Shown here: in pieces, positions 1,328 to 56,559 of the stretch
Layout of the letters: each line of letters opens with the position of its first letter
Position numbering within the stretch: the first letter of the stretch is position 1
IMG/VR virus record: IMGVR_UViG_3300014613_000017
Span: 63,184-127,183 of that record
DNA: 64,000 bases
DNA from: a virus
Strand: one strand, 5' to 3'
The notes under the pieces: model-generated
Databases searched by the model: none
What the model saw: only the letters and a program-made list of their open reading frames with translations
Told to the model about the DNA's origin: nothing
Program-made: the position numbers and the translations under genes

Positions 1328-1365
1328 AAATAAAGTTAAAAAAAAGTAAATTATAATAATAACAG

Positions 1366-1394
1366 TTGTATAATCTTGAGTTATCGCATATAAT
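1366..1394 (+). promoter_or_regulatory. sigmaA-type early promoter (TTGTAT-17-TATAAT)
   Basis: Sequence match upstream of ORF at 1433. Confidence 0.55.
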
Positions 1395-1432
1395 GAAGTA
1401 TAACGAAAAACAAAAAGAAAGAAGGTTTTGAA

Positions 1433-1609
1433 ATGAGTAACTTCATTAAACATAGTGTAATAGTAGAATGTAAAGGAACAGGGAAAACGGTTTATATTAA
1501 ACAGTTTGACACAAAAAAAGAAGCATGGGAAAACATGAAAGAAATAGATTTCAATGATCGTACACTATATAAAAAAGGAATTAATGAGGTTAACACGCTT
1601 TTTAATTAA
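1433..1609 (+). CDS. small hypothetical early protein (58 aa)
   Basis: Translated by hand: MSNFIKHSVIVECKGTGKTVYIKQF...; RBS GAAGG; not in ORF track. Confidence 0.6.
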   Translation: MSNFIKHSVIVECKGTGKTVYIKQFDTKKEAWENMKEIDFNDRTLYKKGINEVNTLFN

Positions 1610-1639
1610 AATAAACTATAAGAAAGAAGGAATCGAAAA

Positions 1640-1852
1640 ATGAATCCTATTCAAGCTTTATACAGTATTGAAACTATGTCACATGAAGAGGTTTACAACT
1701 ATTGTCACTATGTAAATAAAGAAGTAGCGAAAAACATTGTAAAATACTTTGACGGAAAATTTCAAGATATTAAAATGTTATCAGATGAAATGATCCAACT
1801 TGAAAACAGTATTCAAGATAAAATTAAAATTATGAAAGAATCGTTTGAATAA
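1640..1852 (+). CDS. small hypothetical early protein
   Basis: 70 aa ORF with RBS AAGGA. Confidence 0.65.
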   Translation: MNPIQALYSIETMSHEEVYNYCHYVNKEVAKNIVKYFDGKFQDIKMLSDEMIQLENSIQDKIKIMKESFE

Positions 1853-1892
1853 TAAATAATAAAAATACTATTTTAATGGAGGAATTATAAAA

Positions 1893-2045
1893 ATGAATTA
1901 TTATGATATTGAAGTTACTTTTAACAATGGACAAAAAGAAACGTATGTAGAACAAGCAGAAACATCTTTTGAGGCAATTAAAAACTTTCTAAACAGCTCA
2001 AAAGGTGCTATAAAAGAAAATATACAAGCTATTGAAATCATTTAA
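1893..2045 (+). CDS. small hypothetical early protein (50 aa)
   Basis: Translated by hand: MNYYDIEVTFNNGQKETYVEQAET...; RBS GGAGG. Confidence 0.65.
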   Translation: MNYYDIEVTFNNGQKETYVEQAETSFEAIKNFLNSSKGAIKENIQAIEII

Positions 2046-2110
2046 TAAAATACATCTTTTACAGTCTAAAAAATAAATCAAATTTAATTAATAAATTATG
2101 AATAAAACTC

Positions 2111-2139
2111 TTTACATCTGAATATAATGGTATTATAAT
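2111..2139 (+). promoter_or_regulatory. sigmaA-type promoter (TTTACA-17-TATAAT) upstream of ardA
   Basis: Sequence match. Confidence 0.6.
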
Positions 2140-2189
2140 AAAGAGTATCAAGTAGTAAAAAAATTATAAACAAAAGGGAGATCGACAAA

Positions 2190-3869: not shown

Positions 3870-3890
3870 GACTAAACTATAAGAAAAGGA

Positions 3891-4165: not shown

Positions 4166-4489
4166 ATGAATGATATTAAGCTACATTTTAATACAGATCA
4201 GAAAGTATACACTAATAAAGAATTGAATGAGTCACAAAAGAAACATTTTATAATGCTGAATGAACTGATACAACTTGATAAACTTAATGACAATCAGGTT
4301 GATACACTTATTAATGATTATGACAATGTTCTTATTAAAACATTCATGCAAGATAGTTATTTCCATAATGGATACGCTATGTGTAAAGTATATATTGATT
4401 ATTGCTATAGTAAGCCTATTGATGTGTATGTAAGTGTAAAGAAGTTGCATGAGTTGATGAGTAATAAAGAAGTTGCCGTTTATGTGTAG
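4166..4489 (+). CDS. hypothetical early protein
   Basis: 107 aa, RBS AAGGA. Confidence 0.65.
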   Translation: MNDIKLHFNTDQKVYTNKELNESQKKHFIMLNELIQLDKLNDNQVDTLINDYDNVLIKTFMQDSYFHNGYAMCKVYIDYCYSKPIDVYVSVKKLHELMSNKEVAVYV

Positions 4490-4553
4490 TATCTTAATGA
4501 ATGGCATGTATGATCTGAATGAATGATACAATACATTATAAGAGGTGAAAGAG

Positions 4554-4724
4554 TTGGATAATGAACAATTGCAACTATTAATAGATAAGATTGACGCTGA
4601 ACAAGATAGGCTCGTTGAAGTTGCAGAACAACAAGAATACAACAACAATGAAGAGTATAGAACGGCAGGAAAGATTGAAGGAATGGAACAAGTTAGAATA
4701 TGGCTACAAGAATACTTGAAATGA
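4554..4724 (+). CDS. small acidic hypothetical protein (56 aa, TTG start)
   Basis: Translated by hand: LDNEQLQLLIDKIDAEQDRLVEVAE...; RBS GAGGTG. Confidence 0.55.
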   Translation: MDNEQLQLLIDKIDAEQDRLVEVAEQQEYNNNEEYRTAGKIEGMEQVRIWLQEYLK

Positions 4725-5072
4725 ATAATAATGAAACGTGTGCCATTTAATTATGGTATGCGTTTTTTGTTGTCTTGTATTGTGTGAATGAATGGATATG
4801 TATTGTATTAGAATGAATGGGTATGAGTTGTAAGTATCGTATAGCGTATCGTATGTGATCCATTGTGAATGAGTTGGAATGATTAAAATTGAAATGGGCA
4901 AAAAGCTGCATATGTAGTATTGATAACTATGTGTAGTTTTGCTGATGTGGTATGATGTTATATATTATAGTTGATTATAGTTACGTTTAATCTGTTCTAT
5001 TATAGGTATAACAGTTTAACTAGTATTGAGTATTGTATTGAGTATGATAATAAGTATGATAATAAATTATAA

Positions 5073-7560: not shown

Positions 7561-8217
7561 ATGGGAAACCTACTCCTCGTATTCAATTAATTTTTTGCAT
7601 CCTCTTAATAAAACAGAGGAGCAAAATATCCCATATATTACTAACTATATACAGATTTTCAGTTTTTATCAATAGTAATTGTGAATAATTATAATTTATT
7701 TTTAATTCATTTCATTTTCAATCCACATCCAACCTAACCTCACATTCAATCATATTTAATTGCCAAATAGCTCCTCAGCGTTCCAAACTACCCTCTACCA
7801 TACTAAACCATTACCTCACCTTATCTCTCCTCTGAGAGCTTAATTCTAATTAAAACTAATTTCATTGTTCGCATCTCACATACAGGGGGGATATATTTCA
7901 GATAATCGAAAAAGGATGTCACCATAGACACCCTATCCTCAATTTGACTATTCAATTTTCATTAGCTCAAGTTTCAGCTTCATCTCATCTGCACATCAAC
8001 TTACCTCTTAGATAGCATTCTCTAATTAGAATCAGTTGATTAAATCCATTCTAATATCACACATGACAATTTATACCTTAAATTTTAGAATCAGTTTTAG
8101 CAACGCTCTCGATTTACACAGAGGCATGTCAATAATTCTGATTTACCTATTCTCGTATTAGGTAGTAAAAAGTGTCAAAATTTAATCTCAATCCAATCCC
8201 AAATAATAAAAATCTCC

Positions 8218-9151: not shown

Positions 9152-11455
9152 TTATAATTTATTATCAGAAACTTCAGCATTCATATCAGTATTCATCTCA
9201 GCATTAATCAGATCACGTAGGAAGGTTTTACGGACTGAGCTTGCATCTACTGTGATAGCCTTATGCAATGCATTTCCTTCTACCAATGCAACTCCTTTTT
9301 CAATTGCACGAGTAATTGCTGTATAAACTAACTGACGTGATAGCAATGTGAATGCACCATAGTCTAATGCAAATACGACATGCTTGATTCCACTTCCCTG
9401 TGAAGAATGAACAGTGAGAGCATATGCCAATTGAATCTTATCCAATTCCTTCTTCTCAATAAACACATCACCAACTTGCCCCTCGAATCGAACAAATACA
9501 CCCTCCAAGTCACCTGAGATAAGCACATCACCTATGATTCCCATTGTGCCATTGTAGACAGTTGTTGTAGGAGTCTTCTCATCCTCTTTCACATATTGTA
9601 TGAATTGGTCAAATGAATAGAATACTGGAATGTCATATGAATTTCCTTTATGGATAACCTTATCATTCATCTTGAATGTCTGATTTCTATGAACAATCGA
9701 ATCTGATTCAGCAGCATTGAATATCTTCTGCATTTCAGTATTCAGATTTTCTACAGATAAAACTTTCTTGTCCTTGTTAGCAACAATAACTTGGAAATCA
9801 AATAAATCTTTCGGCTCTTTGATTTTCTCTTTATATGCGTTAGCAATATTTAAAATATCTCTTGCAATATTATCTTTAGTCTCACCACTGTAAGCAATAA
9901 CCGTTTGATCTTGTAATTCACCATACGTTTCTTTTGTAGTTGTTTTAACATTGTATTTCATAATCTGCTTACCATCTCGGATATCATTAGCTAGACTGAG
10001 TATGCCTGATTTAGAAGCTTGTCTATGAACTTGTGTTAGCTCATATGAAGGGAACAGATTAGTAGTTAGTAAATCACGCAATACATCACCATAGCCAATT
10101 GCAGGAAGCTGACCGCTATCTCCTACTATGATTAACTTAGCACCATTTTTAATCGCTTCAAGCAGTTGTAGACTAAGGTTAACATCAACCATAGAGAACT
10201 CATCGGCAACAACCAAGTCATAGTCCATCTGCACTTTTTCATTAGGGTTCTGATTGCCACCAATAGCTCGGTGAATGGTAGATGATTCAATTCCTTTGAG
10301 TGCTAATACCTGTGCAGCTTTTCCACTCAATGCAACTGTAATGTAATTCTCTATCCCTAGTGTCTTGATGATTCCAGATACTAAAGTTGTTTTACCAACT
10401 CCACCTTTACCATTAATGACCATTACACCATGTTTATAACCTTCTATTAGCACTTGATGCTGCTCTTCTGTAAATGTGAAACCTTGTTCAGCTTCAACTT
10501 GCTTAATTCTAAAGTTCATATCATGCTCATTTTCAGTGAACTCATATGAATTAGCAATTCGTTTTAACTCTTGAAGCACTGATTGCTCTTGCTCATACAC
10601 ATAACGGAAAGTGATACGGTTATCATTTGCATAGAAGTATTCATTCTTGCTAAGGTTGTTGACACTCTCAATTAATGAATCAAGTTGCAACTCCAATAGT
10701 TTAGCTAACTTATCTAACAAGTCACCACGTTTAATCCAAGTGTGTCCACTATCTAATTCCTTTTGAATGACATAGCTGATAGCTGAATGGATGCGATTAG
10801 AATTGTAAGGGTCATCTCCTCTAGCCATAGCTACTTTATCTATCGTAAGGAATCCAAATGTATCAATCTTGCATAGTTCGTAAATGTTTGTAGTAATAAT
10901 GTGCAATGCTTTTTTTGCATCGTTATAGTGGTCATTAATCTTCTTCAGTTGATTCGTTGTGAAACCCATTCCTTCTGATCCTGCAATAACTACAGACAAT
11001 TCATCATTTGTTTGGATTTTCTCTCTAATCTTATCTAGTGTCTTATCCTTGATGCCTTTTGTCTTTGTTGTATCAATTTGATTGGCAACAATTAAATCAA
11101 CCAGCTTCTGATTAGGATATGCTTTAGTAAGTGTATCGAATTGTGTCTCAGTTAAGATTGCTTTCAGGAAACGATTCTGTGATTCCATTGTGTCTAACTT
11201 TTCAGCTTCAACGTCCAATATCTTATAGTAAGCTCCATATTGTTCATGCATGTAGTGTCCTTCAAACTTAACTAAATATGTTTCACCTTTAGTCAATTGT
11301 CTTGTATCACCTTGGATAGCTACGTTATTGAATTTGTTTTTGATTAGTTCTTGGTTGTAATTAACAGGCAGGCATCCGTATATGCCACTTCCACTATCTT
11401 TATTGTAGAACACTTCTCTTATTATCCTTACTTCCATTTCATACGTCTTCGTCAT
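9152..11455 (-). CDS. recD2: RecD2-like SF1B DNA helicase
   Basis: Walker A GKGGVGKT, motifs ADEFSM, VGDSGQLP, LTQVHRQ, YALTVHSSQGS, LVYTAITRA; N-terminal OB/HhH region. Confidence 0.9.
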   Translation of the reverse strand: MTKTYEMEVRIIREVFYNKDSGSGIYGCLPVNYNQELIKNKFNNVAIQGDTRQLTKGETYLVKFEGHYMHEQYGAYYKILDVEAEKLDTMESQNRFLKAILTETQFDTLTKAYPNQKLVDLIVANQIDTTKTKGIKDKTLDKIREKIQTNDELSVVIAGSEGMGFTTNQLKKINDHYNDAKKALHIITTNIYELCKIDTFGFLTIDKVAMARGDDPYNSNRIHSAISYVIQKELDSGHTWIKRGDLLDKLAKLLELQLDSLIESVNNLSKNEYFYANDNRITFRYVYEQEQSVLQELKRIANSYEFTENEHDMNFRIKQVEAEQGFTFTEEQHQVLIEGYKHGVMVINGKGGVGKTTLVSGIIKTLGIENYITVALSGKAAQVLALKGIESSTIHRAIGGNQNPNEKVQMDYDLVVADEFSMVDVNLSLQLLEAIKNGAKLIIVGDSGQLPAIGYGDVLRDLLTTNLFPSYELTQVHRQASKSGILSLANDIRDGKQIMKYNVKTTTKETYGELQDQTVIAYSGETKDNIARDILNIANAYKEKIKEPKDLFDFQVIVANKDKKVLSVENLNTEMQKIFNAAESDSIVHRNQTFKMNDKVIHKGNSYDIPVFYSFDQFIQYVKEDEKTPTTTVYNGTMGIIGDVLISGDLEGVFVRFEGQVGDVFIEKKELDKIQLAYALTVHSSQGSGIKHVVFALDYGAFTLLSRQLVYTAITRAIEKGVALVEGNALHKAITVDASSVRKTFLRDLINAEMNTDMNAEVSDNKL

Positions 11456-11760
11456 TCCTTCATCCTCTTTTCTATTATAATTTATTATTTATACATTCAT
11501 TATCAAGATGTCACCCACACTGGATAAACACCTACACTTTATACTATATACCATTGTTTGGAATTTATCAATAGATAAATAAATTATAATTAAAATAAGT
11601 TTATTTTCATATGCTATTGATAAAATAGGATTTAATGTATATAGTTAGTAATGTAAGGACTTATCTTACATAGAGTATTACATTAATAGTAAATTATAAT
11701 ATAAATAAACAATATTGCAACCTCGAAAGGAGGGAGCATGACAGAGAGAGCATCGGGGGA

Positions 11761-12324
11761 ATGGATTTGGCAGATGTAAAAATTAGAGTAGATGATAGTA
11801 GTAATAGCTTATTCTTTAAGGACTTTACTCTTTCTGATATTAACGTAATAAAATTATTGATTCAATACAGATACAAATATGACAACTATCTTTATTCAGA
11901 GAAAAACTTCTTCTTTGGTGAAGCTGGTGAGATTCAATCAATGAATGAGGAGATTATACTTACTTATATATCTTTAGATCAGACCATTGTGGAATGCAAC
12001 TTCTCACCTGAACAACTGAAACTAATTGGATTGTACGAGCATGGATTCACCATAAAGGAAATGGCTACAGAGATGGGATTAGGCACAGACAAGTATATTA
12101 GAAAGAAATTTAACACGATATGCAATCAGATAGTTAAGCAAAACTTATGGAATTGGCGGAAAACGCACTATACACATTCGCTGAAACTCAAGAGCAAGAA
12201 ATGCAGTAAGTGTAAGGAGTTCTTACCAGCTACAGATGAGTTTTTTAGCCCGTTACACCATACAAAAGATGGCTTCCACAGCCAGTGTAAGAAGTGTAAA
12301 GATTTAAATATCCGAAAAACATAG
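11761..12324 (+). CDS. DNA-binding protein with sigma-region-4/LuxR-like HTH and C-terminal CxxC Zn finger
   Basis: FSPEQLKLIGLYEHGFTIKEMATEMG HTH pattern; CSKC...CKKC. Confidence 0.55.
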   Translation: MDLADVKIRVDDSSNSLFFKDFTLSDINVIKLLIQYRYKYDNYLYSEKNFFFGEAGEIQSMNEEIILTYISLDQTIVECNFSPEQLKLIGLYEHGFTIKEMATEMGLGTDKYIRKKFNTICNQIVKQNLWNWRKTHYTHSLKLKSKKCSKCKEFLPATDEFFSPLHHTKDGFHSQCKKCKDLNIRKT

Positions 12325-12371
12325 GCAAATAGGTGTTCAAGGACACGAACTATATTAGAGGGAGTTATTTT

Positions 12372-12776
12372 ATGAAATTAAAATTTACGAATGGGAAGTC
12401 TTTTCTTCTTCCAGATAGCATTGAGCCATCAGAAAGATTGATTGAAATTAATAAAGTATTAGAATCAGAACTTATATTTGATGGTCGCAAGATGACTGTT
12501 GAAAGTTACTTTAGAGAAACTTGGAATAAGCCGACAACATTAACAGCACTAGATAGAATCAGTTACTACTTAAGCAAAATGCCAGAACAAAAAGGTCAGC
12601 ACGACTCAGCTATCCTTTCTAAGAATGATGAAATGGAAATGAATCAAGGTGTTCGCTGGAAGACTCAAAAAGGCGAAAGAATTATTGTTAAAGCAAGATA
12701 TTCAAACTTTGGGGACTTAAGCTTAGATTTAAAAGCTGAAATTGGACTAATAGATACAAGCGATTCTTACAATTAA
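12372..12776 (+). CDS. hypothetical phage protein
   Basis: ORF 12333-12776; ATG 12372 follows RBS AGGGAG. Confidence 0.7.
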   Translation: MKLKFTNGKSFLLPDSIEPSERLIEINKVLESELIFDGRKMTVESYFRETWNKPTTLTALDRISYYLSKMPEQKGQHDSAILSKNDEMEMNQGVRWKTQKGERIIVKARYSNFGDLSLDLKAEIGLIDTSDSYN

Positions 12777-12927
12777 ACTACTGTTTGGGAGTTAAAACCT
12801 CCCAAATTAATAAATTATAACTTAATAATACACAGAAATGTACGAAAAAGCAACGAAAACTAAAGGTTTTTGCGTTATTTTCCCTAAAAAGCGTAAGAAA
12901 ACACAGAGAAAAAGGAGATTGAATTAA

Positions 12928-13320: not shown

Positions 13321-14586
13321 ATGGGGATGCTTATGACAGAAAAACTTTGGATTGCTGACACTAATTTTTTATACAACGGAGTCGAAGAAGCGATTGAAAG
13401 CAAGAAAATTGTTCTCATGTCTACTGTGCGTCAAGAGGCAGATAAACATAAGAATGCAACTGACGTTGACTTGCGATTCAAGGCTAGAAAGCTAAATAGA
13501 TTTGTTTTTGAAAACTACGATAAGTTTCATCACGATGTTGGTGAATACAATCCTGAAGTTATTTTGGGTGAAGATTATGATCGTGGAGTTATGGACAACC
13601 GAATCGTGGCTTGTGCAAAGGCAAATGGATATGGGATTCTCACAAATGATTTAAACCTCTTCTCTACTGCTAAAGCATTTGGAATTGAAGTTGACACACT
13701 TGATTCTGGATTATTGCTAAATAAAGGTGAATACACAGGTATCCTAAAAGTATATGTGACTAGAAACAGCACAGAAGAAGAGTTGTTTGCAAAAGTATAT
13801 CAAGACCCAAGTGTTAACTCATTTGGACTATTAACTAATCAATACATTGTTTTCTATGATAAAGATACGCCTATTGAATTTGACGAAGAGAAAAATCCAA
13901 CAAAATATAAAGTACTAGATAAACTTAGATGGAACGGAAAAGAGCTAGTTAAACTTAAACTTCCTCATAAGAAAGTTGTACAGGCTAGGAATGAAGAACA
14001 AGAATGTGCAATTGATTTGCTTAATAATGATGATATTCCAATTAAATTTATTATTGGTGTAAGCGGATCAGGGAAAACTAAACTATCTGCAAAATTAGGT
14101 ATCCACAAAGTAGTAGATACTGGAGCACATGCAAAAATTCTTGCAATCAGAAATCCAATTGGTTCAGGAGAGAATATTGGTTTCTTGCCAGGAGATTTCT
14201 CCGAAAAGACAGATAAATTCTTCGCACCAATCATTGATTGCTTAAAGGGTGGAGAACTGGAAGCTGCACTAATGGAACAGAAAGGTCAACTAGAGAAACA
14301 AATTCCTTACTTCTCAAAAGGGCTTACTTGGAACGATAGCTATGTACTTGTCGATGAAGCTGAGGATTTAAGCAGATCGAACGTCATCTTGCTTGGTTCT
14401 CGAATAGGCATACAGGCTACAATTGTCTTTGCTGGTGACTATAAACAAGTTGAAGATAAGTATTCTCGCAACAATGGTTTGATTCAAGCTATTGAAGAAC
14501 TTAAAGGTAAATCATTAGTTGGTGTAGTATCACTAAGCGATGACATTCGTTCTGAAGCTTCTAAGTTATTTGCTGAAATGAATTAA
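13321..14586 (+). CDS. phoH: PIN-PhoH (PhoH2-type) ATPase/ribonuclease
   Basis: N-terminal PIN motifs (IADTN, DNRIV, LTNDLNL); Walker A GVSGSGKT; VDEAEDL; AGDYKQ. Confidence 0.85.
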   Translation: MGMLMTEKLWIADTNFLYNGVEEAIESKKIVLMSTVRQEADKHKNATDVDLRFKARKLNRFVFENYDKFHHDVGEYNPEVILGEDYDRGVMDNRIVACAKANGYGILTNDLNLFSTAKAFGIEVDTLDSGLLLNKGEYTGILKVYVTRNSTEEELFAKVYQDPSVNSFGLLTNQYIVFYDKDTPIEFDEEKNPTKYKVLDKLRWNGKELVKLKLPHKKVVQARNEEQECAIDLLNNDDIPIKFIIGVSGSGKTKLSAKLGIHKVVDTGAHAKILAIRNPIGSGENIGFLPGDFSEKTDKFFAPIIDCLKGGELEAALMEQKGQLEKQIPYFSKGLTWNDSYVLVDEAEDLSRSNVILLGSRIGIQATIVFAGDYKQVEDKYSRNNGLIQAIEELKGKSLVGVVSLSDDIRSEASKLFAEMN

Positions 14587-14609
14587 TAGTAAATTGTAAT
14601 TAAAACTAC

Positions 14610-15285
14610 ACTTTTAACTGGAAGAGCGTACTCCATAAACGCTACATGGTCGTAGTCGCCATGAGCCTTTCCTCAAGGAATACCGTTAGGCGGATGACAG
14701 ATAAGGGCAAACTGCAACCCGACTTCATAAGTCCTGAGCGTGGTCAAGCAAAGGGATTAACAATACCTTAACTAGACCAACTTAATTGTTGGTTCAGACA
14801 ACCTTAAACAAACATTAAACTATGAGTGTGCGTAGCCTTAAATACTTTTGGCACATTCCATGACGCTTTTGCATTTGAAGTCTAAAAAGGGTGGCTCTCA
14901 GTAATAGCTTATGACTTTGGTGATTGGAGAGTAAATCACAAAAATGCAATCAACATCAAGTCTTAATTGGCTTAATCAAGAATTACTCAGCCCTTGCAGG
15001 AAACTGTAGTGCGGCAGTGGATGTCAGTAATGCTCCACATAAAAGTATTTTACACTCCATGTCCTACCTCCTAATCAGGGTTATTGAAAAAGGACGAAAA
15101 AACATCTCACGATTTCATTATCGTTAAAATGAATAAGGCTGATTACCTGACACGAGCAGTCGTCCTTCCCATAGTCGTTGGACATTGAGATGCCAACTGT
15201 ATTGGTTTTGCAGTTGGATACATAGATAGGGTTCATCATATCCCTTCCCAAAATGATGACGAGTACAAAGAGACTATTGAGAAAA
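14610..15285 (+). ncRNA. candidate large ornate non-coding RNA (ROOL/GOLLD size class, family unassigned)
   Basis: About 670 nt with no credible ORF; more than 15 hairpins or long-range helices, a GAAA tetraloop and crossing helices. Confidence 0.7.
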
Positions 15286-16693: not shown

Positions 16694-16739
16694 ATAATAA
16701 ATTATAATCATAAATCAATCGAATAAAAGGAGAATACAC

Positions 16740-17310: not shown

Positions 17311-17931
17311 ATGAGTGAGAAAAAGCCACATGTACTAGGACTAAACAGCGACTATTTAGATTTAGAGTTGCCATCTACAATGGGAGATTACCAAATGTGG
17401 GAGGCTTATCGAGATCGTAAGATTATCTTCAATGACACTGTGGACTCTCAGATTGTTAATACAATTGTTCATTGGATTATTAAGTGGAATGAAGAAGATG
17501 ACAAGGCTGGACTTGTTGGAGATCAACGTAAAAAAATACAAATTTTCATTACCTCAAATGGTGGCGATGTCGTAAGTGGTTTTGCGGTTCTAGATGCTGT
17601 CAAAGCAAGTAAAACTCCTGTAGAAACAGTTGCATTGGGTTGTGCAGCTTCAATGGGAATACTCCTTCTTATGAGTGGGCATCGAAGATTAGCATATCCG
17701 AACACTGTACTATTAATCCATGATGGATCGCTATCGGCTAGTGGCAGTAGCAACAAGGTGAAAAGCACAATGGCATTTTATGAGAAACTTGATGCACGAG
17801 TTAAGAAATTCATCTTAGGTAATACGAAAATTAGTGAAGAGTTGTATGACAAGAATAGTGATATTGAATGGTTTATGTTCGCAGATGAAGAAGGATTAGA
17901 ACTAGGAATTATTGATGCAATTTTAGATTAG
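17311..17931 (+). CDS. clpP: ClpP-family serine protease
   Basis: ITSNGGDV, AASMG catalytic Ser, IHDG catalytic His, GIIDAI C-terminus. Confidence 0.85.
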   Translation: MSEKKPHVLGLNSDYLDLELPSTMGDYQMWEAYRDRKIIFNDTVDSQIVNTIVHWIIKWNEEDDKAGLVGDQRKKIQIFITSNGGDVVSGFAVLDAVKASKTPVETVALGCAASMGILLLMSGHRRLAYPNTVLLIHDGSLSASGSSNKVKSTMAFYEKLDARVKKFILGNTKISEELYDKNSDIEWFMFADEEGLELGIIDAILD

Positions 17932-18007
17932 ATGTTTTATTAGAGGCTTGAAATTCGAGCTTCTGAGTAAGGTATTTAATTAGTGAGTTATAAATTTAAT
18001 TAAAACA

Positions 18008-18104
18008 AAAGGACAAGAGGAAGTCATGAGCCTCTTGAATGGTGTACCTTCGCACACCGTCCTTTTGTTTATTTGTGTTTAGCGAAGGAAATACAATGCG
18101 AAGG
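18008..18104 (+). promoter_or_regulatory. structured leader (3-way junction) with anti-SD loop upstream of endonuclease gene
   Basis: Stems 18008-14/18059-65, 18015-20/18031-36, 18041-45/18054-58; loop CCTTCGC complementary to GCGAAGG at 18082 and 18098. Confidence 0.55.
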
Positions 18105-18106
18105 AA

Positions 18107-19150
18107 ATGATAAGAATGGCAGGAAGAAAGGCTCACACTTATAAGGAAGTAGAAGAGCATTTAAACAACTACGGTTATACATTAGTAAGCACACAATACG
18201 TTAATCATACTAACAAGTTGGATATGAAGTGCAACAATAATCATGAATGCTCTATTAGCTTTAAAAATTTTAAAAACGATAAAAGATGTAGACAGTGTTT
18301 CTATGATAGAAGTAGAGAGAAACAAAGAATGAGCTTTGATGAAATCATAGAAAGAATAGAAGAACATGGATTTGAACTTTTATCAGACGACTCAAATTAC
18401 GTGAATTCCAAAAGTGAGATAATAGTAAAATGCCCTAATGGTCATGAATATGTCACATCAATTCAGAACATAAAATCTTCAAAATATAAATGCAAGCGAT
18501 GTGCTGATGAGAAAAAGTCTATTGAAAAAAGAACAAGTGGGAATATAGTTATAGAGTCATTTATAAATAAAGGCTTAATCCCAAAATTTAATGTTGAGTT
18601 TTATAAAAATGCAAATCAGAAGCTACCATATATATGCAAGAAACACATCTCTGAAGGAGTAAAATACACTACTTACGATGGACTGAAAAGAGGATTTTTT
18701 GTTTGTAAAAGTTGTTACATTGAACACAACAGAGCCGAGAACCACTGGAATTGGAGTAGTGGAGTAACATGCTTGTCAGACCATCTTAGGACTGTAATAT
18801 TGGATTGGAAGAAAGAAAGTATTAAACAATCAAACTATAGATGCGTAATAACTGGGGATGATTTCAATGTCATTCATCACCTATATAGCTTCGACAATAT
18901 ACTGAAAGACACTTTAAAAAATACAGGTATAGATTTAAGAAGAGAAATCAGTGATTACACTGACTCAGAATTAAAAATAATAGAAAAAGAGTGTATAAGA
19001 ATACACAGTGAAAAAATAGGCGTTTGTTTAAGAAGTGATATCCACTTGTTATTTCATGATGTATTCGGCTACGGCAATAATACTCCTGAACAATTTGAGG
19101 AATATAAAAATAGATTTAATAATGGAGAATTTGATGGACAGCTAAAATAG
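18107..19150 (+). CDS. free-standing HNH-type homing endonuclease with Zn-finger repeats
   Basis: Repeated CxxGH...CxxC modules; C-terminal CVITG...VIHHL...LFHDVFG. Confidence 0.65.
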
Positions 19151-19193
19151 TGAATTATAAGTAAAAACGAAAGAAAGGAGATACTAAATATAG

Positions 19194-20078
19194 ATGACAA
19201 CTAAGAAAGAATCAACTAAAAAACCTGCCGTAAAAAAGACTTGTCTCAAGTGTTCCAAAGAGCAGGTCTTTTCTAACTTCTATAGTACGACTGACACTGA
19301 CTACTACGAAGACGGAAAATTACCTATTTGTAAAGGTTGTTGCCAAAGAAATATCGAGGCAAAAGGATTCGAAGGTTTTCAAGCATTGATGAGAATGATA
19401 AACAAACCAATTTATGATGATTTGTTTAAGGGTGATTATTTTGAGTACGTAAAGAATATTAATTCGTTACCACAGTATCGCTCTAATACTTTTCTTGATA
19501 GTTCTTTATTTAAGGATAACAAGTCCTTAGAGCTAACTAAGAGAGCTAAACCGAAAGACCTTACTGCTGATGAACTTCGAGAAGCTGAAGACTTTTTTGG
19601 TCTCGGTTTTAGCGAGCAGGAGTATATATGGTTGAATTCAGAGTTTGAAGACTATGGTTCACAATTCGATATATCTGCAAAACCAATGCAAAACTTAATA
19701 CGTGAAATCTGTCTTACTCAGCTAGACATTAGAAATAAGAGAACAGCTAAACAAGATGTAAAAAATGAATTAAAAACACTACAAGATTTGCTAGGCTCGT
19801 CAAATTTGAAGCCCATGCAAGAGACAGGAGCACCCTCAATAGATCAAGAAACATTCGGAACTTTAATTAAGAAGTGGGAAGATTCAACCCCTATACCCGA
19901 TGATGAAATGTGGAAAGACACTGATACAATTGGTAAATATTTAAAAGTGTGGTTCACAGGTCATCTAATGCGAATGTTCAGCATTGAGAATAAAGATGAA
20001 GAAGAGTATTATGCTGAAATAAATAAATACACTGTTGAAGCTTCTGAAGACGAAGGTGAAGAAGATGACAGGACATAA
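19194..20078 (+). CDS. YonG-like protein, putative terminase small subunit
   Basis: N-terminal CxxC/CxxC; directly upstream of and overlapping the large terminase. Confidence 0.55.
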   Translation: MTTKKESTKKPAVKKTCLKCSKEQVFSNFYSTTDTDYYEDGKLPICKGCCQRNIEAKGFEGFQALMRMINKPIYDDLFKGDYFEYVKNINSLPQYRSNTFLDSSLFKDNKSLELTKRAKPKDLTADELREAEDFFGLGFSEQEYIWLNSEFEDYGSQFDISAKPMQNLIREICLTQLDIRNKRTAKQDVKNELKTLQDLLGSSNLKPMQETGAPSIDQETFGTLIKKWEDSTPIPDDEMWKDTDTIGKYLKVWFTGHLMRMFSIENKDEEEYYAEINKYTVEASEDEGEEDDRT

Positions 20079-23407: not shown

Positions 23408-23442
23408 GTAAATTATAATTATATTGTAAAGGGGATTATATT

Positions 23443-25007: not shown

Positions 25008-25034
25008 TCTCTCAACTTGAGAGGAGGTGAAAAA

Positions 25035-27119: not shown

Positions 27120-27151
27120 AAATAAATTATAATTTAATGGAGGAATAAACA

Positions 27152-28165: not shown

Positions 28166-28192
28166 TTACCAAATTAATAAATTATAATTTAA

Positions 28193-32321: not shown

Positions 32322-32343
32322 TTAATAAATTATAATTATTATT

Positions 32344-32372
32344 AGAGGGCAGATTTATCTGTTCCTCTTTTT
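32344..32372 (+). terminator. intrinsic terminator after tail tube gene
   Basis: AGAGGGCAGA-loop-TCTGTTCCTCT then T-run. Confidence 0.6.
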
Positions 32373-33466: not shown

Positions 33467-33510
33467 TAAATTATAAAATAAATTAAATAATAAGACATGG
33501 ATGTGAACGA

Positions 33511-36320: not shown

Positions 36321-36437
36321 GCCCAAATTTAATATGAGTAAATTATAACCTAAAACTAATAAATATTTTAAACTAAGAAGTGTCTTTAATCAGACGCTTC
36401 TTTTTTATTTTCATTTTTATAGAAAAGAGGCGGTTAA

Positions 36438-37454
36438 ATGGCAAGAAAAAAGTCTAATGACACTATTTACGACACTTCAAATGAAATACGCAAGACAGAC
36501 AAGCACAGTGGTATTTATAAAATTACAAACAGCGACAATGGAAAAGTATACATTGGTCAAAGCGTCAATGTATTTAAAAGAGTCAATATACACAGAACAA
36601 ATCTTAGAAGAGGTGTGCATGGAAATAACCATCTTCAATTATCATGGAATAAATATGGAGAAGATTCTTTCCAATTCGAGATTGTTGAGTTTTGTGAGGA
36701 AGAGTTGCTAAACTCAAAAGAGTGTAGCTGGATTGCGTTTTACAACTCGGCAGACAAACACAATGGCTACAATTCCATGATTCCTGACCCAGAAGCAAAG
36801 AAGTTTCGCCACTCAAAAAAGACAATAGAATTTCTTGCTAACAGAGTAGATTTCACAAAAGAAGAATTATTGACTTATCTTCATGAGTTCTTTTATATGG
36901 AAGGCAGATTGCCTGACCCTAAAGATAAAAATAATCCTGAGTTACAAGGATATCCTAAATTGCATCACTTTGTAACAGCTTTTGGGACTGTTGCAAGTGC
37001 ATTTGAAGAAGCAGGACTGTCAGAATACGATCATAAAGCGAAGCTAAGGAATAAGACGCTTTATACAAAAGAGAGAGTGTTAATACAATTTACAAATTTC
37101 ATTGATGAGCATGGTAGATTCCCAAACATAGATGAGAGACAAGACACTAAGAATTACGACATGCCAACTCATTATGTTATAAAGAAACTTTTTGGTGGGA
37201 TGAATCAACTTAGAGCAGAATTGGGATATGATTTCAACTCACTAAAAGAAATCGAAAAAACGGAATCTTTGAATGGATTGAAAAAACTGAGTGAAAACAA
37301 AGAAGCGATTACACTAAAAACTATAGCGGAGTGCCCTTGGACTAAAAGTGGTGAATACTACAAGAAACATTTTGGAAGTGTAGATAATGCATTAAAACTT
37401 GCTGGAATAGACCCACTAGAAAATAAACGAAAAAAGAAATCATTAAATAAATAA
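36438..37454 (+). CDS. GIY-YIG homing endonuclease (paralog of 34491-35456)
   Basis: GIYKITNSDNGKVYIGQS; same repeated C-terminal helical modules. Confidence 0.85.
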   Translation: MARKKSNDTIYDTSNEIRKTDKHSGIYKITNSDNGKVYIGQSVNVFKRVNIHRTNLRRGVHGNNHLQLSWNKYGEDSFQFEIVEFCEEELLNSKECSWIAFYNSADKHNGYNSMIPDPEAKKFRHSKKTIEFLANRVDFTKEELLTYLHEFFYMEGRLPDPKDKNNPELQGYPKLHHFVTAFGTVASAFEEAGLSEYDHKAKLRNKTLYTKERVLIQFTNFIDEHGRFPNIDERQDTKNYDMPTHYVIKKLFGGMNQLRAELGYDFNSLKEIEKTESLNGLKKLSENKEAITLKTIAECPWTKSGEYYKKHFGSVDNALKLAGIDPLENKRKKKSLNK

Positions 37455-37478
37455 ATTATAATGAAAAGTGGTGAATAA

Positions 37479-48355: not shown

Positions 48356-48389
48356 ATAAAAATAAATTATAAGAGGAGGTGAATATTTA

Positions 48390-49754: not shown

Positions 49755-49827
49755 ATAAATTATAACGAATTGGAAGTGTCAAAAATGATGCTTCTTTTTT
49801 GTTTGATTCAGAAAAGGAGGAAAAAGT

Positions 49828-50610
49828 ATGAGTTTCAAAATGAAGCATACGATGAGAAATGATTTACTGCCTATTGGGACAAAGAGACGCAGTGGAATTA
49901 AGATTAACAAAGTACGCTTCGGAGTTAGTCATGACACTGGAAATCCTAATTCAACTGCACAAGGAAACGTTAATTACTATAAGAATTCCGCTAATGACCA
50001 ATCGGCTTCTGCTCAAGTATTTATTGATGAGAAAGAAATCCTCATATGCATTCCGTTAGATGAGAAGGCATGGCATGTTATTTATGAGAAACCGATTGAT
50101 AATCAATTGTATGGCGATGACGCAAATGATATTGCCATCGGCATAGAGCTTTGTTATTTCCCAAATGACTATAATCGTTCTTTGAAGGCTTATGAAAAAT
50201 ATGTATGGTTTCATGCATGGTTAGCTTACACTTACAAATTAGATATTAGCAAAGATTTTGTTGGTCATTACACACTTGATCCACAGCGTAAAACTGACCC
50301 AATGAATGCATTTAAAGTAGTTGGTAAAACTTTCGCTCAGTTTCTAAAGGATGTTCAAGCCGAATACAATGACTGCACAAAAATAGTCCTTGCTGCTTCT
50401 GTCAATGACGATAAAATAAAGGATGGTGTTAGAATGTTTAAGCCAAGTAAAGCAGTATTAACTCGTGAGATGATTGCATTTTTAGATAAAGCTAAAGCAG
50501 ATGGTGTATTTTCATCTGACGAATGGAAAGAAAAAGCTCTTCAAGGCGAGTTGCCAATTGATGATGTTCTTGGATTAATTGCTGCTTATCTAAATAGAAC
50601 ACATGAATAA
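49828..50610 (+). CDS. endolysin, N-acetylmuramoyl-L-alanine amidase (Amidase_2)
   Basis: HDTGN, AWH, IGIELC, GH...KTDP motifs. Confidence 0.9.
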   Translation: MSFKMKHTMRNDLLPIGTKRRSGIKINKVRFGVSHDTGNPNSTAQGNVNYYKNSANDQSASAQVFIDEKEILICIPLDEKAWHVIYEKPIDNQLYGDDANDIAIGIELCYFPNDYNRSLKAYEKYVWFHAWLAYTYKLDISKDFVGHYTLDPQRKTDPMNAFKVVGKTFAQFLKDVQAEYNDCTKIVLAASVNDDKIKDGVRMFKPSKAVLTREMIAFLDKAKADGVFSSDEWKEKALQGELPIDDVLGLIAAYLNRTHE

Positions 50611-50645
50611 ATTATAAATAAACCACTGAATATAAGGAGTCTTTT

Positions 50646-51578: not shown

Positions 51579-51671
51579 TTAATTATAAATAAAATGCAAG
51601 TTTTAATTGAGGCATGTCTTAGAAACATGTCTCTTTTCTATATAACTTTCAAAAGAAATGGGAGTGAATAA

Positions 51672-53579: not shown

Positions 53580-53650
53580 TCCAATTGATATAAAGAATAA
53601 AATATAACTTTTATTAAATAGTGTTTCGAAAGATACAAAGGAGTGAAATT

Positions 53651-55189
53651 ATGACACTAAGAAAAATAGATGAGAACATGATTGATCCGAATTTCGTACA
53701 AAAAGTGGACGATAGTATCGCACAGTTGGCAGAAACGACACCTAAAATAATTAACACCACAATGACACAAAGTGAAATACAAACAGCTATCAACACATAT
53801 AAACGTCTAAAGTTTTTAGCTGGCATATATCCACTAACCCTAACAAACGGTCTAGGCTTAACCATTCCATCAAATCGAGAAATTGAATTTGAAGAGGGCG
53901 CGGAGCTGAAAGCCAACGGAACTGACCTTTCTTCCTATCACATCGTGCGGGTACAGGGAGTGCAAAACGTGAAGCTCGTTAAACCGAAAATCGTTGGAGA
54001 GCGTGCTACACACATCGGTACGACTGGAGAATGGGGTTTCGGCATTGCAGTTGATAATGCAAAAAATATTACGCTTATTCAACCGAAATGTTCGGATTGT
54101 TGGGGGGATGGGATTTATTTAGGGGATTTGAATGAAAATATAACGATTGACCGTCCAATTTGTGATAATAACCGCAGACAGGGAATTTCTGTTATTGCTT
54201 GTAAAACACTCACAATCATTGACCCAATATTAAAAAATACAAACGGGACAAATCCACAATCAGGAATTGATTTTGAACCCAATCTCGGTACATCTGGTTT
54301 AGAAAATATCCGCCTTATTAATCCGTATACGGAAAATAACGTAGGTATGGGCGTATTATTCACATTAGCCGCATTGAGTAATACAGATAAAATTATTGAC
54401 ATCACTGTTGAGAACCATAAAGACGTTGGTAGCGGAAATGGTTTATATATAGGTGCTTGCGATAATTTAAAAGGCGCAATAACTATAAACAATCCCAAGT
54501 GGATTAATAACGACTTTATCGCATTGAAAGCTAGGGATTACACCTCAACAGCACCTTTAGTCCATATCAAATCACCTACTATCATTAATCCTCATAGGTT
54601 AACAGTAGTCGGAGAATTAGCGGACCCTAGATATGGTTCGGTCATATCACTATATCGAGAAGGTAGCGATAGCATTGTAAATTCGTTAGGTGGTTTGGTA
54701 TTAGACGATATAAGTATTCAAAACACTGACATTAACACTTACGCTAACATTGCAGTGCATGATGCACTAACAACGAAAAAAGTTAATAACATGTTTGTTC
54801 GAAATCCTATTAGACTTGGACTATCTCCAAGAAATGTTTACTCAAATGTAGGTGTGATGAAAGTTAAAGAGTATGACATTAAAAATATTCTTAGTGCTGA
54901 TGTATCAGTTACTGGGACAGATGTGATTAGGCACTACACTAATTTAGGTGCTACTGGTTTGCTTAAAGTGACCTTACAAGAAGCCACTCCTATTGGTTGT
55001 AAAGTTACTATTCAAATTGAATCAGCACAATCAATAGAACTGAATCCCTACTTACAATCAGTGGAAGGATTATCAGCGTCACCACAACGAATATCGTCCA
55101 ATGCGATTGGTAGTAAACTAGTTATCGAAAAAGTAACGGCTACTCTTTGGACAGTAGTAAGTAAGACGGGGACGTGGACTGTAGCGTAG
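53651..55189 (+). CDS. right-handed beta-helix (pectate-lyase fold) tail spike / depolymerase
   Basis: WGDGIYL, NNRRQGISV, GIDFEPN motifs; ATG 53651 after RBS GGAG. Confidence 0.8.
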   Translation: MTLRKIDENMIDPNFVQKVDDSIAQLAETTPKIINTTMTQSEIQTAINTYKRLKFLAGIYPLTLTNGLGLTIPSNREIEFEEGAELKANGTDLSSYHIVRVQGVQNVKLVKPKIVGERATHIGTTGEWGFGIAVDNAKNITLIQPKCSDCWGDGIYLGDLNENITIDRPICDNNRRQGISVIACKTLTIIDPILKNTNGTNPQSGIDFEPNLGTSGLENIRLINPYTENNVGMGVLFTLAALSNTDKIIDITVENHKDVGSGNGLYIGACDNLKGAITINNPKWINNDFIALKARDYTSTAPLVHIKSPTIINPHRLTVVGELADPRYGSVISLYREGSDSIVNSLGGLVLDDISIQNTDINTYANIAVHDALTTKKVNNMFVRNPIRLGLSPRNVYSNVGVMKVKEYDIKNILSADVSVTGTDVIRHYTNLGATGLLKVTLQEATPIGCKVTIQIESAQSIELNPYLQSVEGLSASPQRISSNAIGSKLVIEKVTATLWTVVSKTGTWTVA

Positions 55190-55225
55190 GATGATACGGT
55201 GCGGTAAAACACATTAATACACACT

Positions 55226-55260
55226 AGGGCAATTCCTTTATTGGAGTTGCCCAATTTTTT
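55226..55260 (+). terminator. intrinsic terminator ending the late operon
   Basis: GGGCAATTCC...GGAGTTGCCC followed by T-run. Confidence 0.7.
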
Positions 55261-55310
55261 TGTGTCTAATTTTATTAAAATAATAAATTATAAGTTTTTT
55301 ACATAGATTG

Positions 55311-55339
55311 TTGACTAATTTGTCGAATCATATTAGAAT
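55311..55339 (+). promoter_or_regulatory. sigmaA promoter TTGACT-17-TAGAAT with Spo0A box TGTCGAA (55321-55327) in the spacer
   Basis: Direct sequence match. Confidence 0.6.
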
Positions 55340-55373
55340 CAATTTAAGAACAAAAATATAACATTAGGAGGCT

Positions 55374-56369
55374 ATGAAAATGGCTAATGACGCAAGTAGA
55401 TTAGAAAGTGATTTAAAGACAATCGTGACCACAATCTGTCCAGACATTTTACAAGACACCCTTGCCCTTAGATTGGAAGAAGTATTGTACCGCTATCATA
55501 TTGAACATCGTGCTTCACAAAACTTAGAGGATGACTTAAATGATAAAATAAGTTTATTCCTCTCATCGAAAAAGTTAGAAGGACTCAGTGAAACTACACT
55601 AACTGATTATCAAATGGAACTTAGGCTGTTTAGCAGGCATGTGTCTAAAGCTGTGGTAATGATTCAAACTCCAGATATTCGTCACTACTTAGCATCATTA
55701 GAGAATATCGAGACATCTACAATGGGGAAGAAGTTGACAGTGTTGAAGAGTTTCTTTGGATGGATGGTGAGAGAAGAAATCCTGTTACGTGATCCAACAG
55801 TAAAGATTAAGTCACCTAAGAAAAAGAAACGCTTACCAAAAGGTTTAACAGTTGAGTAACTATGTCTTGTTCGTGAAATGTGTAAAACTAAAAGAGAGAG
55901 AGCGTTGGTTGAAGTGTTCTACTCAACAGGATGTCGATTGTCTGAATTAGCGTCTATGAATGTCGATATGATTAATTATCAAGAAATGAGCACTACGGTA
56001 ATAGGGAAGGGAAATAAGGAAAGAAAGGTATATCTAACTTTTACTGCACTATTCCATTTAAACAATTATCTCAATGACCGCACAGATGATTGTGGGGCGG
56101 TATTTATCACACAGAGAAAACCATTTAGACGAATGAGCAACAAAGCGATACAAGATGAGATTCACCATATTGAACAGCGAGTTGGACTTAAAAACAAGAA
56201 GTTGCATCCGCATATTTTCAGACACACTCTTGGACAAACCATGTTAGACAATGGAGCAAAACTTGAAGAGGTGCAGCATGTGCTTGGGCATGAGTCAATT
56301 AGTACAACGAACGTGTACGCACAGGTTTCAGAAGAAAGAAAACAACAAGCACATAAACGTTATGCTTAA
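55374..56369 (+). pseudogene. XerD-like tyrosine recombinase split by a single in-frame TAA at 55857-55859
   Basis: ORFs 55374-55859 and 55878-56369 are in the same frame: ...KGLTVE*LCLVREMCKT...; STGCRLSE, HIFRH, LGH, Y intact. Confidence 0.85.
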
Positions 56370-56559
56370 TTAATAAATTATAATATAAATATAAATAGAG
56401 TGACAGAAACGTCACTCCATACATAGAAAACTACTCATCTAATTAATAACCGAATAAAATTGTTCTTTTATGTGGTATTTATGTTAATTATTTGATATTA
56501 TTATGTGTATTTTAGTATTAAATATCAGATTTGTATTATAAATTTATGCTAGTTTTAGA

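Follow-up and report, generated by a model that had tools for sequence, protein, structure and literature searches.

The late promoters of phage T4 (TATAAATA) consist of a single A/T-only element without a -35 box, and about 40-50 copies lie in short intergenic gaps, co-oriented with the genes. They are used by the host core polymerase with a small phage sigma factor, gp55, which reads them together with gp33 and the sliding clamp. The stoperators of Cluster A mycobacteriophages (the L5 gp71 sites) are 13-bp asymmetric sites; dozens of them occupy short intergenic regions in both arms of a temperate phage, often at stop codons and in one orientation. The immunity repressor binds the same site, which also serves as operator of the early lytic promoter. 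To our knowledge, stoperators are known from one actinophage cluster only. In SPbeta, a repeated regulatory element of about 10 copies, SPBRE, is the operator of MrpR (YopR) (PMC10516654).

The window analysed here is a stretch of 64,000 nucleotides from the virus record IMGVR_UViG_3300014613_000017 (127,183 bp), an SPbeta/Tsamsa-like temperate siphovirus of Bacillaceae. Its recurrent motif, TAAATTATAA, resembles T4 late promoters in being a single, A/T-only, -35-less element with about 50 copies in short intergenic gaps, co-oriented with the genes. Like stoperators, the copies are short asymmetric sites, dozens in number, spread over both arms of a temperate phage, often at stops and in one orientation. 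Like SPBRE, the motif is a repeated regulatory element in the intergenic DNA of an SPbeta-type phage, but it has another sequence, about 50 copies, and stands alone. The SPbeta sequence that we take to be SPBRE sits in sigmaA promoter spacers (tAGACAAATACAAATAATATGTATAtaat), and SPBRE belongs within the sigmaA promoters of about 10 early genes, whereas the present motif lies upstream of, or separate from, -35/-10 pairs. A likelier counterpart of SPBRE here is a separate conserved sigmaA promoter family with a fixed spacer (TTGATA-17-TATAGT; window 7644-7672, 11543-11571, and 11617-11645).

Abundance and polarity of the motif

TAAATTATAA is the commonest 10-mer of the phage genome. It occurs 25 times in the window against 1.0 expected (100 dinucleotide shuffles gave at most 4). 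The whole record has 53 copies, where Markov models of orders 1-4 predict 1.2-2.9. The density is about one copy per 2.4 kb, roughly 25-50-fold enriched. An earlier note, made from the window's letters, had named intergenic-matched shuffles as a check on enrichment. By this check the enrichment holds, and more strongly than the note had it: with intergenic DNA defined by 12-nt margins, 52 of the 53 copies are intergenic, whereas shuffling segment by segment gives an expectation of 1.4 (at most 8 in 500 shuffles).

Because the - strand matches at 27127 and 28182 are reverse readings of the palindromic extension TAAATTATAATTTA at 27123 and 28178, the window holds 23 independent sites, not 25, with 20 on the + strand and three on the - strand. 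All 22 exact copies listed in the earlier note were recovered where it had placed them, as were its three one-mismatch variants, and one + strand copy (158) was added. The sites are given below in window coordinates; copies are exact unless marked otherwise.

158-167, + strand: divergent junction at the start of the rightward arm; the copy absent from the earlier list
1347-1356, + strand: followed by a sigmaA-like promoter (TTGTAT-17-TATAAT)
2092: one-mismatch copy TAAATTATGA
2756-2765, + strand: within a hairpin loop (CTACACTAAT / ATTAGTGTAG)
5063-5072, + strand: end of the rightward early cluster, opposite convergent leftward genes; followed by the palindrome TGTTTCACGTGAAACA
7689-7698, - strand: in - strand order, terminator (7934-7913), motif, sigmaA-like promoter (7672-7644), gene 7560-5827
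9152-9161, - strand: overlaps the RecD2 stop (TAA is motif positions 8-10); next leftward start 27 nt downstream
11475-11484, - strand: between a leftward sigmaA-like promoter (11571-11543) and the RecD2 RBS, which begins 8 nt later
11580-11589, + strand: divergent junction; the sigmaA-like promoter 11617-11645 starts 27 nt downstream
11690-11699, + strand: past the promoter 11617-11645, just before the RBS of the sigma-4-like gene
11761-12324, + strand: sigma-4-like gene (187 aa), first gene of the late arm
12811-12820, + strand: 3' of gene 12333-12776; position kept in the FJAT-22090 prophage
14590-14599, + strand: one-mismatch copy TAAATTGTAA, directly 3' of the PhoH/PIN gene; one base later the palindrome TAAAACTACACTTTTA, then a 630-nt non-coding gap, a composite also found in the FJAT prophage
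16698-16707, + strand: upstream stop starts 7 nt before; RBS begins 20 nt after
19151-19160, + strand: one-mismatch copy TGAATTATAA, 3' of an HNH gene; motif also at the orthologous FJAT junction
23409-23418, + strand: just 3' of the portal-position gene (yonE position); position kept in FJAT
27123-27132, + strand: presumed major capsid gene starts 19 nt downstream; RBS begins 7 nt after
28178-28187, + strand: between the capsid gene stop and a hairpin; same order in the FJAT prophage
32326-32335, + strand: between a stop codon and the terminator 32347-32364
33467-33476, + strand: abuts the stop of 32990-33466
36339-36348, + strand: flanked by two terminators (downstream one 36375-36402)
37452-37461, + strand: opens with the TAA that ends the upstream gene; the 2093-aa tape-measure gene starts 17 nt downstream
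48363-48372, + strand: RBS GAGGAGG from the very next base
49756-49765, + strand: between a stop codon and the terminator 49772-49795
50608-50617, + strand: opens with the TAA that ends the upstream gene; RBS starts 17 nt downstream
55284-55293, + strand: order terminator (55227-55252), motif, sigmaA-like promoter (55311-55339)
56374-56383, + strand: convergent end of the rightward arm, adjoining the opposing gene's terminator (56420-56395)

The strand polarity described earlier extends to the whole record. The three - strand copies in the window (7689, 9152, and 11475) are all at leftward genes, and in the left arm, where genes run leftward (record 1-62.5 kb), 28 of 28 copies are on the - strand. 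Palindromic reverse readings aside, no copy is antisense to both neighbouring genes. Replication strand was rejected as the source of this polarity, because leftward genes within the right arm carry minus-strand copies.

The full signal, seen at about 50 sites, is AAWTAR-TAAATTATAA-t, 16 bases of A and T only (conserved stretch of 16-17 nt). No -35 box was found and no information lies outside positions -6 to +11; a dyad search for a hidden -35/-10 class returned A/T noise alone. A literature search on motif strings gave incidental primers and nothing else, two IMG/VR scans with extended motif patterns gave single chance matches in A/T-rich viruses, and megablast of 24 kb against cultured phages gave zero matches.

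Placement at gene junctions

Most motif sites lie upstream of genes. The earlier statement that nearly all of them sit at or just after a stop codon fits about 30 of 51 sites, whose stop overlaps the motif or lies no more than 20 nt before it (the overlap with the recD2 stop, at 9152, was correctly seen), and not the rest. A constant phase between motif and upstream stop was refuted, as the two may overlap or stand more than 100 nt apart. Copies are also found at the heads of divergent units, without a co-oriented gene upstream (158, 11475, 11580, and 11690).

On the downstream side, start codons lie anywhere between 17 and more than 300 nt from the motif. The next RBS is often no farther than 20 nt away, and at about 10 copies it starts 1-8 nt past the 10-mer, so that TATAAT (positions 6-11) cannot be the -10 element there and a transcript could start no later than about position 12. 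The slot between stop and RBS, together with the sense-strand polarity, would also suit a signal in the RNA, with UAAAUUAUAA in intercistronic mRNA acting as a cleavage site for an endoribonuclease of phage or host, or as a binding site that tunes translation or stability; a PIN+PhoH gene (YlaK-type) is encoded at 13321-14586. This explanation is a long shot in our view. No structure accompanies the motif, its distance to the start codon is far from fixed, and no promoter is evident that would transcribe the 11580 copy, which precedes a sigmaA-like promoter where two units diverge. Cleavage at copies before terminators would also split the protective 3' hairpin from the upstream message.

A stable hairpin follows within the next 30 nt at about 8 of 48 sense copies, and several of these hairpins are good intrinsic terminators (28178, 32326, 36339, 49756, and record 20839 and 30301 are among these copies). 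In relatives, hairpins follow the motif less often (2/31, 0/21, and 1/27). Convergent gene ends hold two copies (5063 and 56374), and two overlap sigmaA-like promoters, at record 37672 (TTGACA-18-TATAAT) and window 11475 (TTGATA-16-TAAATT).

Because copies precede terminators, sit at convergent ends, and abut RBSs, a stoperator-like polar roadblock or operator stays a serious rival, if an unlikely one. The motif would then be an asymmetric site at which a phage protein, which could be the sigma-4-like 187-aa protein or some repressor, blocks RNA polymerase from one direction and insulates or silences each unit. Every positional class fits such a site: after stops, before terminators, upstream of sigmaA-like promoters, between promoter and gene (11475 and 11690), and at convergent ends, and so do the overlaps with sigmaA-like promoters. 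Density, asymmetry, and co-orientation with transcription match those of stoperators, many one-orientation sites in short intergenic regions being found here as there, and the relatives are integrated prophages, which makes the lineage temperate. However, a cognate repressor was not identified in the phage, the sigmaA promoter family described above already resembles the SPBRE/MrpR operator analogue, and a TAnnnT core in a site of 100% A/T would be more usual for a melting element. The motif also differs from stoperators, confined as these are to one actinophage cluster, in host phylum and sequence, in a core that resembles a -10 hexamer, and in its co-occurrence with a sigma gene.

Related prophages and transcription genes

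The prophage of Bacillus sp. FJAT-22090 is syntenic with the phage over both arms. RTAAATTATWA occurs 33 times in the roughly 97 kb of this prophage and about 41 times in all the remaining 4 Mb, and the prophage copies are polarised alike, with a strand flip at the arm junction. Motifs tend to trail the same orthologous genes in both (9/17 vs 3/36, Fisher p = 7e-4). The host chromosome is not enriched, so the motif is not an ordinary host promoter class. Five further sigma-bearing prophages were examined, and three have clear, polarised, lineage-specific versions (ACATAAR-TAAATTTTTA; AAAG-TAATATAAT; ATGARTART-AATAWACAA); in G055 there is a weaker likeness to G083, and the signal of Siminovitchia is weak. 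The three closest lineages, namely this phage, FJAT-22090, and G246, share an invariant TAAATT. Since related prophages hold their own versions at the same junctions, the motif is a real regulatory signal.

Three other candidates were dropped. The abundant polarised motif of Tsamsa is a complete sigmaA promoter, TTGACA-17-TGATATAAT, and thus a different thing. The motif-like AATTAATTATAG of SPbeta, downstream of yonN, lies more than 130 nt outside the YonO-start primer-extension interval given by published primers. A Lysinibacillus version, TGAATTAAT, comes down to about 5 sites near one gene.

Relatives also bear on recombination. Contig L128 (capsid protein 93% identical), which conserves the 27123 copy, has an endonuclease-like gene of about 1 kb inserted between direct repeats, TAATAAATTATAAGAAAAAA, at a junction where the window has a single one-mismatch copy (26547). 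The motif is usually the first element past the stop codon, the genome has 44 TAAAA-N6-TTTTA junction palindromes, some of them in fixed composites with TAAATTATAA, and the phage encodes tyrosine recombinases. The motif might accordingly be a PeSL- or attC-like joint, a short shared sequence for cassette exchange or insertion, which could coexist with a transcriptional role. T4-type PeSL cassettes and the TAAAA-N6-TTTTA palindrome are likewise short conserved elements between stop and RBS that are tied to inserted or swapped genes, but the motif is asymmetric, strictly polar, and also present in late structural operons, and its positions are kept across diverged relatives. We consider a joint of this kind quite improbable: there is one insertion example, strict co-orientation with transcription would be needless, copies are also found at unit heads, and retention at orthologous junctions of phages about 50% identical points to function instead of exchange scars.

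A sigma-70-family gene lies outside the window at record 4393-4977 on the - strand and is itself preceded by a motif copy at record 5026. Its product matches Sigma70_r2 above the cut-off (E 7.5e-10), with region 4 weak, scores 66 bits against TIGR02937 (cut-off 42.9), and aligns end to end with SigH-type models. Searches of IMG/VR, metagenome contigs, and genome contigs gave no close relatives of this sigma family; the closest homologues are carried on a 93-kb and a 72-kb contig. In related prophages a sigma gene and a polarised A/T junction motif co-occur, a link that is confounded by relatedness; this 10-mer is not enriched in Tsamsa, Kirov, PK-3, or SPbeta, all four of which lack a Sigma70_r2 match. 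The 187-aa product of 11761-12324, which the earlier note had called an HTH protein and a possible binder, combines an HTH resembling sigma region 4 with a 4-Cys zinc ribbon at the C-terminus (phrog_5767 'sigma factor', E 2e-16). It is a candidate for a trans-factor that reads the motif.

Promoters of a single-subunit or YonO-type RNA polymerase would call for a phage polymerase gene. T7-type RNAP (PF00940) had no match in the record, a search in which the control was likewise silent, and SPbeta YonO had none either there or in the genome of the FJAT-22090 host, in searches without a positive control. No sliding-clamp gene or tRNA genes were found in the phage.

The motif as a candidate promoter and its significance

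The sigma gene in the same genome, the conserved TAnnnT-type core TAAATT without a required -35 box, and the co-occurrence of sigma and motif lend support to a -10-type, single-element promoter used by a holoenzyme of host core and phage sigma, like T4 late promoters. This is our best explanation, held tentatively and at a little less than an even chance. The motif would be a site on the DNA that the transcription machinery recognises in one orientation, with host RNA polymerase core and the phage sigma-70-family factor initiating at about 50 junctions in both arms. TAAATT (positions 1-6) would serve as the -10 hexamer, with AAWTAR extending it upstream and the A/T-only bases that follow forming the melted discriminator. 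The intergenic enrichment and polarity, the retention of sites in the FJAT-22090 prophage, the copies at unit heads and before the sigma gene, and the unenriched host chromosome also speak for this reading. Enrichment, polarity, conserved positions, the sigma gene, and its co-occurrence with such motifs are observed; we infer that the sigma factor reads the motif and that transcripts would start about 2-5 nt beyond the 10-mer.

The earlier note had proposed a -10-only phage promoter, next to an RNA-level processing signal or a protein-binding signal, and the features just named speak for the promoter. Against it are the roughly 8 copies before hairpins or terminators, the two at convergent ends, and the roughly 10 nearly flush to an RBS. 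The sigma factor has region 4, yet a -35 element is not seen, and the factors of the phage and the FJAT prophage share only 37% identity, though the motif core is the same. Such phage sigmas could serve host manipulation instead. If the promoter reading holds, the use of host core polymerase with a small phage sigma would be a further likeness to T4. The motif nevertheless differs from T4 late promoters in its sequence and longer conserved stretch, in a sigma that has region 4 and is not a gp55 homologue, in the lack of a detected phage clamp gene, and in copies that also lie in early or accessory regions and before terminators.

A broader and rather unlikely proposal is that, in a clade of temperate, SPbeta-like phages of Bacillaceae, the YonO polymerase strategy has given way to a SigH-like sigma of their own. 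Each lineage would have a private, -35-less, A/T-only promoter of about 16-25 nt at about every second junction of both arms, doubling as a cassette-exchange joint. If true, a single element would be the Gram-positive equivalent of both T4 late promoters and PeSL cassettes.

If the motif is a promoter, it would provide a complete transcription map for a so far undescribed branch of SPbeta/Tsamsa-like phages, and Bacillus-type hosts would gain a compact, orthogonal pair of sigma and promoter that comes in several natural specificities. As a polar roadblock, it would be the first silencing system of the stoperator type outside actinobacteriophages. With the FJAT-22090 lysogen, the motif can be studied in culture. 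On either reading, the motif and its lineage-specific versions are practical markers for delimiting large prophages and cassettes in Bacillaceae genomes.

Abundance, polarity and anatomy of the motif

The window contains 25 occurrences of the A/T-only 10-mer TAAATTATAA, where 1.0 would be expected and 100 dinucleotide shuffles gave at most 4. An earlier note had described a polarised 10-mer in at least 22 copies. Its motif coordinates were all correct on recount and its three one-mismatch variants (14590, 19151 and 2092) were confirmed, but a + copy at 158 had been overlooked. The - matches at 27127 and 28182 arise from reading a palindromic extension, TAAATTATAATTTA, in reverse. The whole record is linear, 127,183 bp long and estimated to be 68% complete, and the window is its right half. 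The record holds 53 copies, compared with 1.2-2.9 expected from Markov models of order 1-4, which makes TAAATTATAA the top-ranking 10-mer of the genome by count. The claimed enrichment also holds against shuffled intergenic DNA: by the rough ORF calls made in the present analysis, 52 of the 53 copies are intergenic, where 1.4 would be expected and 500 rounds of shuffling each intergenic segment gave at most 8. Left-arm genes run leftward, and all 28 copies there lie on the - strand; those in the right arm lie on +, except at three leftward genes, where they are on -.

Alignment of 51 independent sites revealed information from -6 to +11 only (AAWTAR-TAAATTATAA-t), with slight A-richness over positions 13-16 and no signal in the -35 region. 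Sense, intergenic one-mismatch copies tolerate substitutions at positions 1, 2, 5, 6 and 9, and A3, A4, T8 and A10 are essentially fixed.

Candidate trans-factors and related prophages

The large terminase of the phage is 54% identical to SPbeta YonF, and a TrwB-like protein of 967 aa shares 69% identity with counterparts in Tsamsa/Kirov-type 'Tyroviruses'. Genes for ribonucleotide reductase, a Pol III alpha subunit, DnaB, RecJ and a tyrosine recombinase lie in the left arm, and RecD2, PIN-PhoH, terminase and structural genes in the right. At record 17698-21760(-), a LAGLIDADG-domain ORF (record 20855-21760) adjoins or interrupts the Pol III alpha-type polymerase region. Two genes are candidates for a trans-factor:

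Record 4393-4977 (-), sigma-70-family protein, outside the window; a motif copy at record 5026 precedes it
11761-12324 (+), 187-aa protein, called an HTH protein in the earlier note

The first matches sigma region 2 (E 7.5e-10), region 4 weakly, and TIGR02937 with 66 bits; its alignment to SigH-type models is full-length and scores below their cut-offs. The 187-aa protein hits phrog_5767 ('sigma factor', E 2e-16). In both its alignment and its AlphaFold model (pLDDT 77), a sigma-region-4/LuxR-type HTH precedes a four-cysteine zinc ribbon. Its fold matches, all weaker than E 0.001, were to sigma region 4 (probability 0.96-0.98) and, at lower strength, to the Q21 antiterminator. T7-type RNAP gave no match in the record (PF00940), although the PF00940 control likewise matched nowhere, and a search of the record without positive control found no YonO homologue.

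Relatives were found via the family of the 187-aa protein, which led to 13 prophage loci in Bacillaceae genomes. The prophage of Bacillus sp. FJAT-22090 is syntenic with the phage in both arms (30-85% protein identity) and includes a sigma homologue. The pattern RTAAATTATWA occurs 74 times in this 4-Mb genome, 33 of them inside the 97-kb prophage, and the reversed control pattern gave 44 and 45 occurrences. The prophage copies lie on - up to 211.5 kb and on + from 214.4 kb, with the consensus aACATAAG-TAAATTAT(T/A)A-taat. Over 53 ortholog pairs, the motif follows the same genes in phage and prophage (9/17 versus 3/36; odds ratio 12, Fisher p = 7e-4). Five further genomes carry a phage-type sigma, and three of them clearly have their own polarised A/T-only motifs in intergenic DNA.

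Motif versions in the five further sigma-bearing prophage genomes
G246: ACATAAR-TAAATTTTTA, clear
G083: AAAG-TAATATAAT, clear
G055: weaker overlapping k-mers of the G083 kind
Lederbergia: ATGARTART-AATAWACAA, clear; 28 full matches, 27/28 sense; ~50 loose core matches, with a strand switch at the arm junction
Siminovitchia: only weakly present

The TAAATT hexamer does not vary among the three closest lineages, and the next four bases do (ATAA, ATTA, TTTA). Tsamsa, Kirov, PK-3 and SPbeta either lack the exact 10-mer or have it no more often than chance predicts, and none of them gave a Sigma70_r2 match. The association of sigma and motif is based on a handful of related genomes.

Other abundant motifs were also considered. 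The polarised one of Tsamsa was rejected as an analogue, being a full sigmaA promoter: NC_023007.1 has ~30 near-identical copies at 34-101 kb (cTTGACAag-N-AATGATATAAT), nearly one for each early gene. In SPbeta there are sigmaA promoters of the SPBRE type, along with AGAATAAAAATAAAAT, a weaker polarised motif that directly precedes RBSs. On the + strand of NC_001884.1, between 75 and 133 kb, (A/G)GAATAAAAATAAAAT recurs in ~12-15 polarised copies at 3-6 nt before RBSs, in one case directly ahead of an SPBRE promoter; SPbeta, which lacks the sigma, may thereby have a weaker analogue. Giant-virus GVMAG contigs L185, L058, L188, L101 and L222 (GC 18-26%) show 6-10 TAAATTATAA copies in every ~10 kb, strongly biased to one strand, and may have an unrelated promoter-like motif with the same 10-mer.

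Positional contexts and possible functions

The earlier note placed nearly all copies at or just after a stop codon. This is true for ~30 of 51 sites, where an upstream stop is at most 20 nt from the motif or overlaps it, in no fixed phase. The downstream start codon is 17 to >300 nt away; ~21-24 sites have an RBS and start codon within ~40 nt. A sigmaA-like -35/-10 pair follows at ~13 sites (e.g. 7689-, 11580, 55284), and a stable hairpin at ~8, several of them good terminators.

Copies in distinctive contexts
28178, 32326, 36339, 49756, record 20839, record 30301: motif, then hairpin or terminator
5063, 56374: two copies at the end of convergent units
158, 11475 (-), 11580, 11690: four copies heading units, with no co-oriented upstream gene

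Of the functions raised in the earlier note (-10-only phage promoter, RNA-level or protein-binding signal), a promoter is favoured here, with somewhat less than an even chance of being right. It is supported by the sigma gene, the missing -35 box, a TAnnnT core, A/T-only downstream bases, the copies at unit heads and the co-occurrence of sigma and motif. The -10 element would have to be TAAATT (positions 1-6), with transcription starting ~2-5 nt beyond the 10-mer, because RBSs can begin directly after the motif (1-8 nt past it at ~10 sites; at 48363, with the next base). Copies before terminators and at convergent ends fit a promoter poorly. The former objection is softened by the much greater rarity of that arrangement in relatives (2/31, 0/21, 1/27). 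Other poor fits are a sigma with a region 4 beside a motif without a -35 element, and the low identity (37%) between the sigmas of phage and FJAT-22090 prophage despite an identical motif core.

A stoperator-like polar roadblock or operator, bound by a hypothetical protein, would account for every motif position without exception; however, its prior is low, and we consider it unlikely. An RNA-level signal is the reading least consistent with copies upstream of promoters, and is improbable. There is a similarly small chance that the motif is a recombination joint. This has one clear example, an inserted endonuclease-like gene bounded by direct repeats TAATAAATTATAAGAAAAAA in L128, a 4.6-kb IMG/VR contig with a 93% identical capsid protein, and such a role may coexist with a promoter or roadblock. 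The contig retains the motif ahead of its capsid gene, with a one-mismatch copy downstream of the gene. Its insert (L128:1885-2945, ~1 kb, endonuclease-like by eye) corresponds to window ~26547, between homologues of genes 25017-26549 and 26580-27119; the repeats are 20 nt long and contain the motif.

Several other elements were observed. A sigmaA-type promoter family, TTGATA-17-TATAGT, has members at window 7644-7672(-), 11543-11571(-) and 11617-11645(+) and at record ~33.8 kb(-) and ~47.8 kb(-), with conserved spacer and leader (CTATTGATAAAwwAGGATTTAATGTATATAGTTAGTAATGTAAGG) and a TAAATTATAA copy upstream of every member; it looks like the counterpart of the SPbeta SPBRE/MrpR operator promoters. 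TAAAA-N6-TTTTA palindromes at gene junctions number 44 record-wide (e.g. window 14601-14616, 51590-51605, 53598-53613). They form fixed composites with the motif, either palindrome-17 nt-motif (record 9882/9855, 21806/21779, 37731/37704) or motif-1 nt-palindrome (window 14590, 51579 and the FJAT-22090 prophage). Window 14617-15252, flanked by the PIN-PhoH gene and a small gene at the yonK position, is ~630 nt without an ORF and had no Rfam match at E <= 0.01; the equivalent place in SPbeta is a 1.6-kb non-coding stretch holding the published YonO start site. A mini-ORF of nine codons (ATG AAA ACT AAT TTA AAT AAT AAA TTA TAA) at record 54485-54530(-), equipped with an RBS, terminates in the second TAA of the motif, which may be fortuitous.

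Relation to known elements

A literature string search for the motif returned incidental matches only and no description of it, and papers on Tsamsa, Tyrovirus and Izhevsk make no mention of promoters. SPBRE and a single YonO start site have been described in SPbeta (SPBRE/MrpR, PMC10516654), and both differ from the TAAATTATAA motif. The motif signal is real, under selection, tied to transcription direction and phage- rather than host-specific. Phage-specific polar transcription signals are already known as a kind of element; what appears new is the sequence family of this one, its host group and its link with a SigH-like phage sigma.
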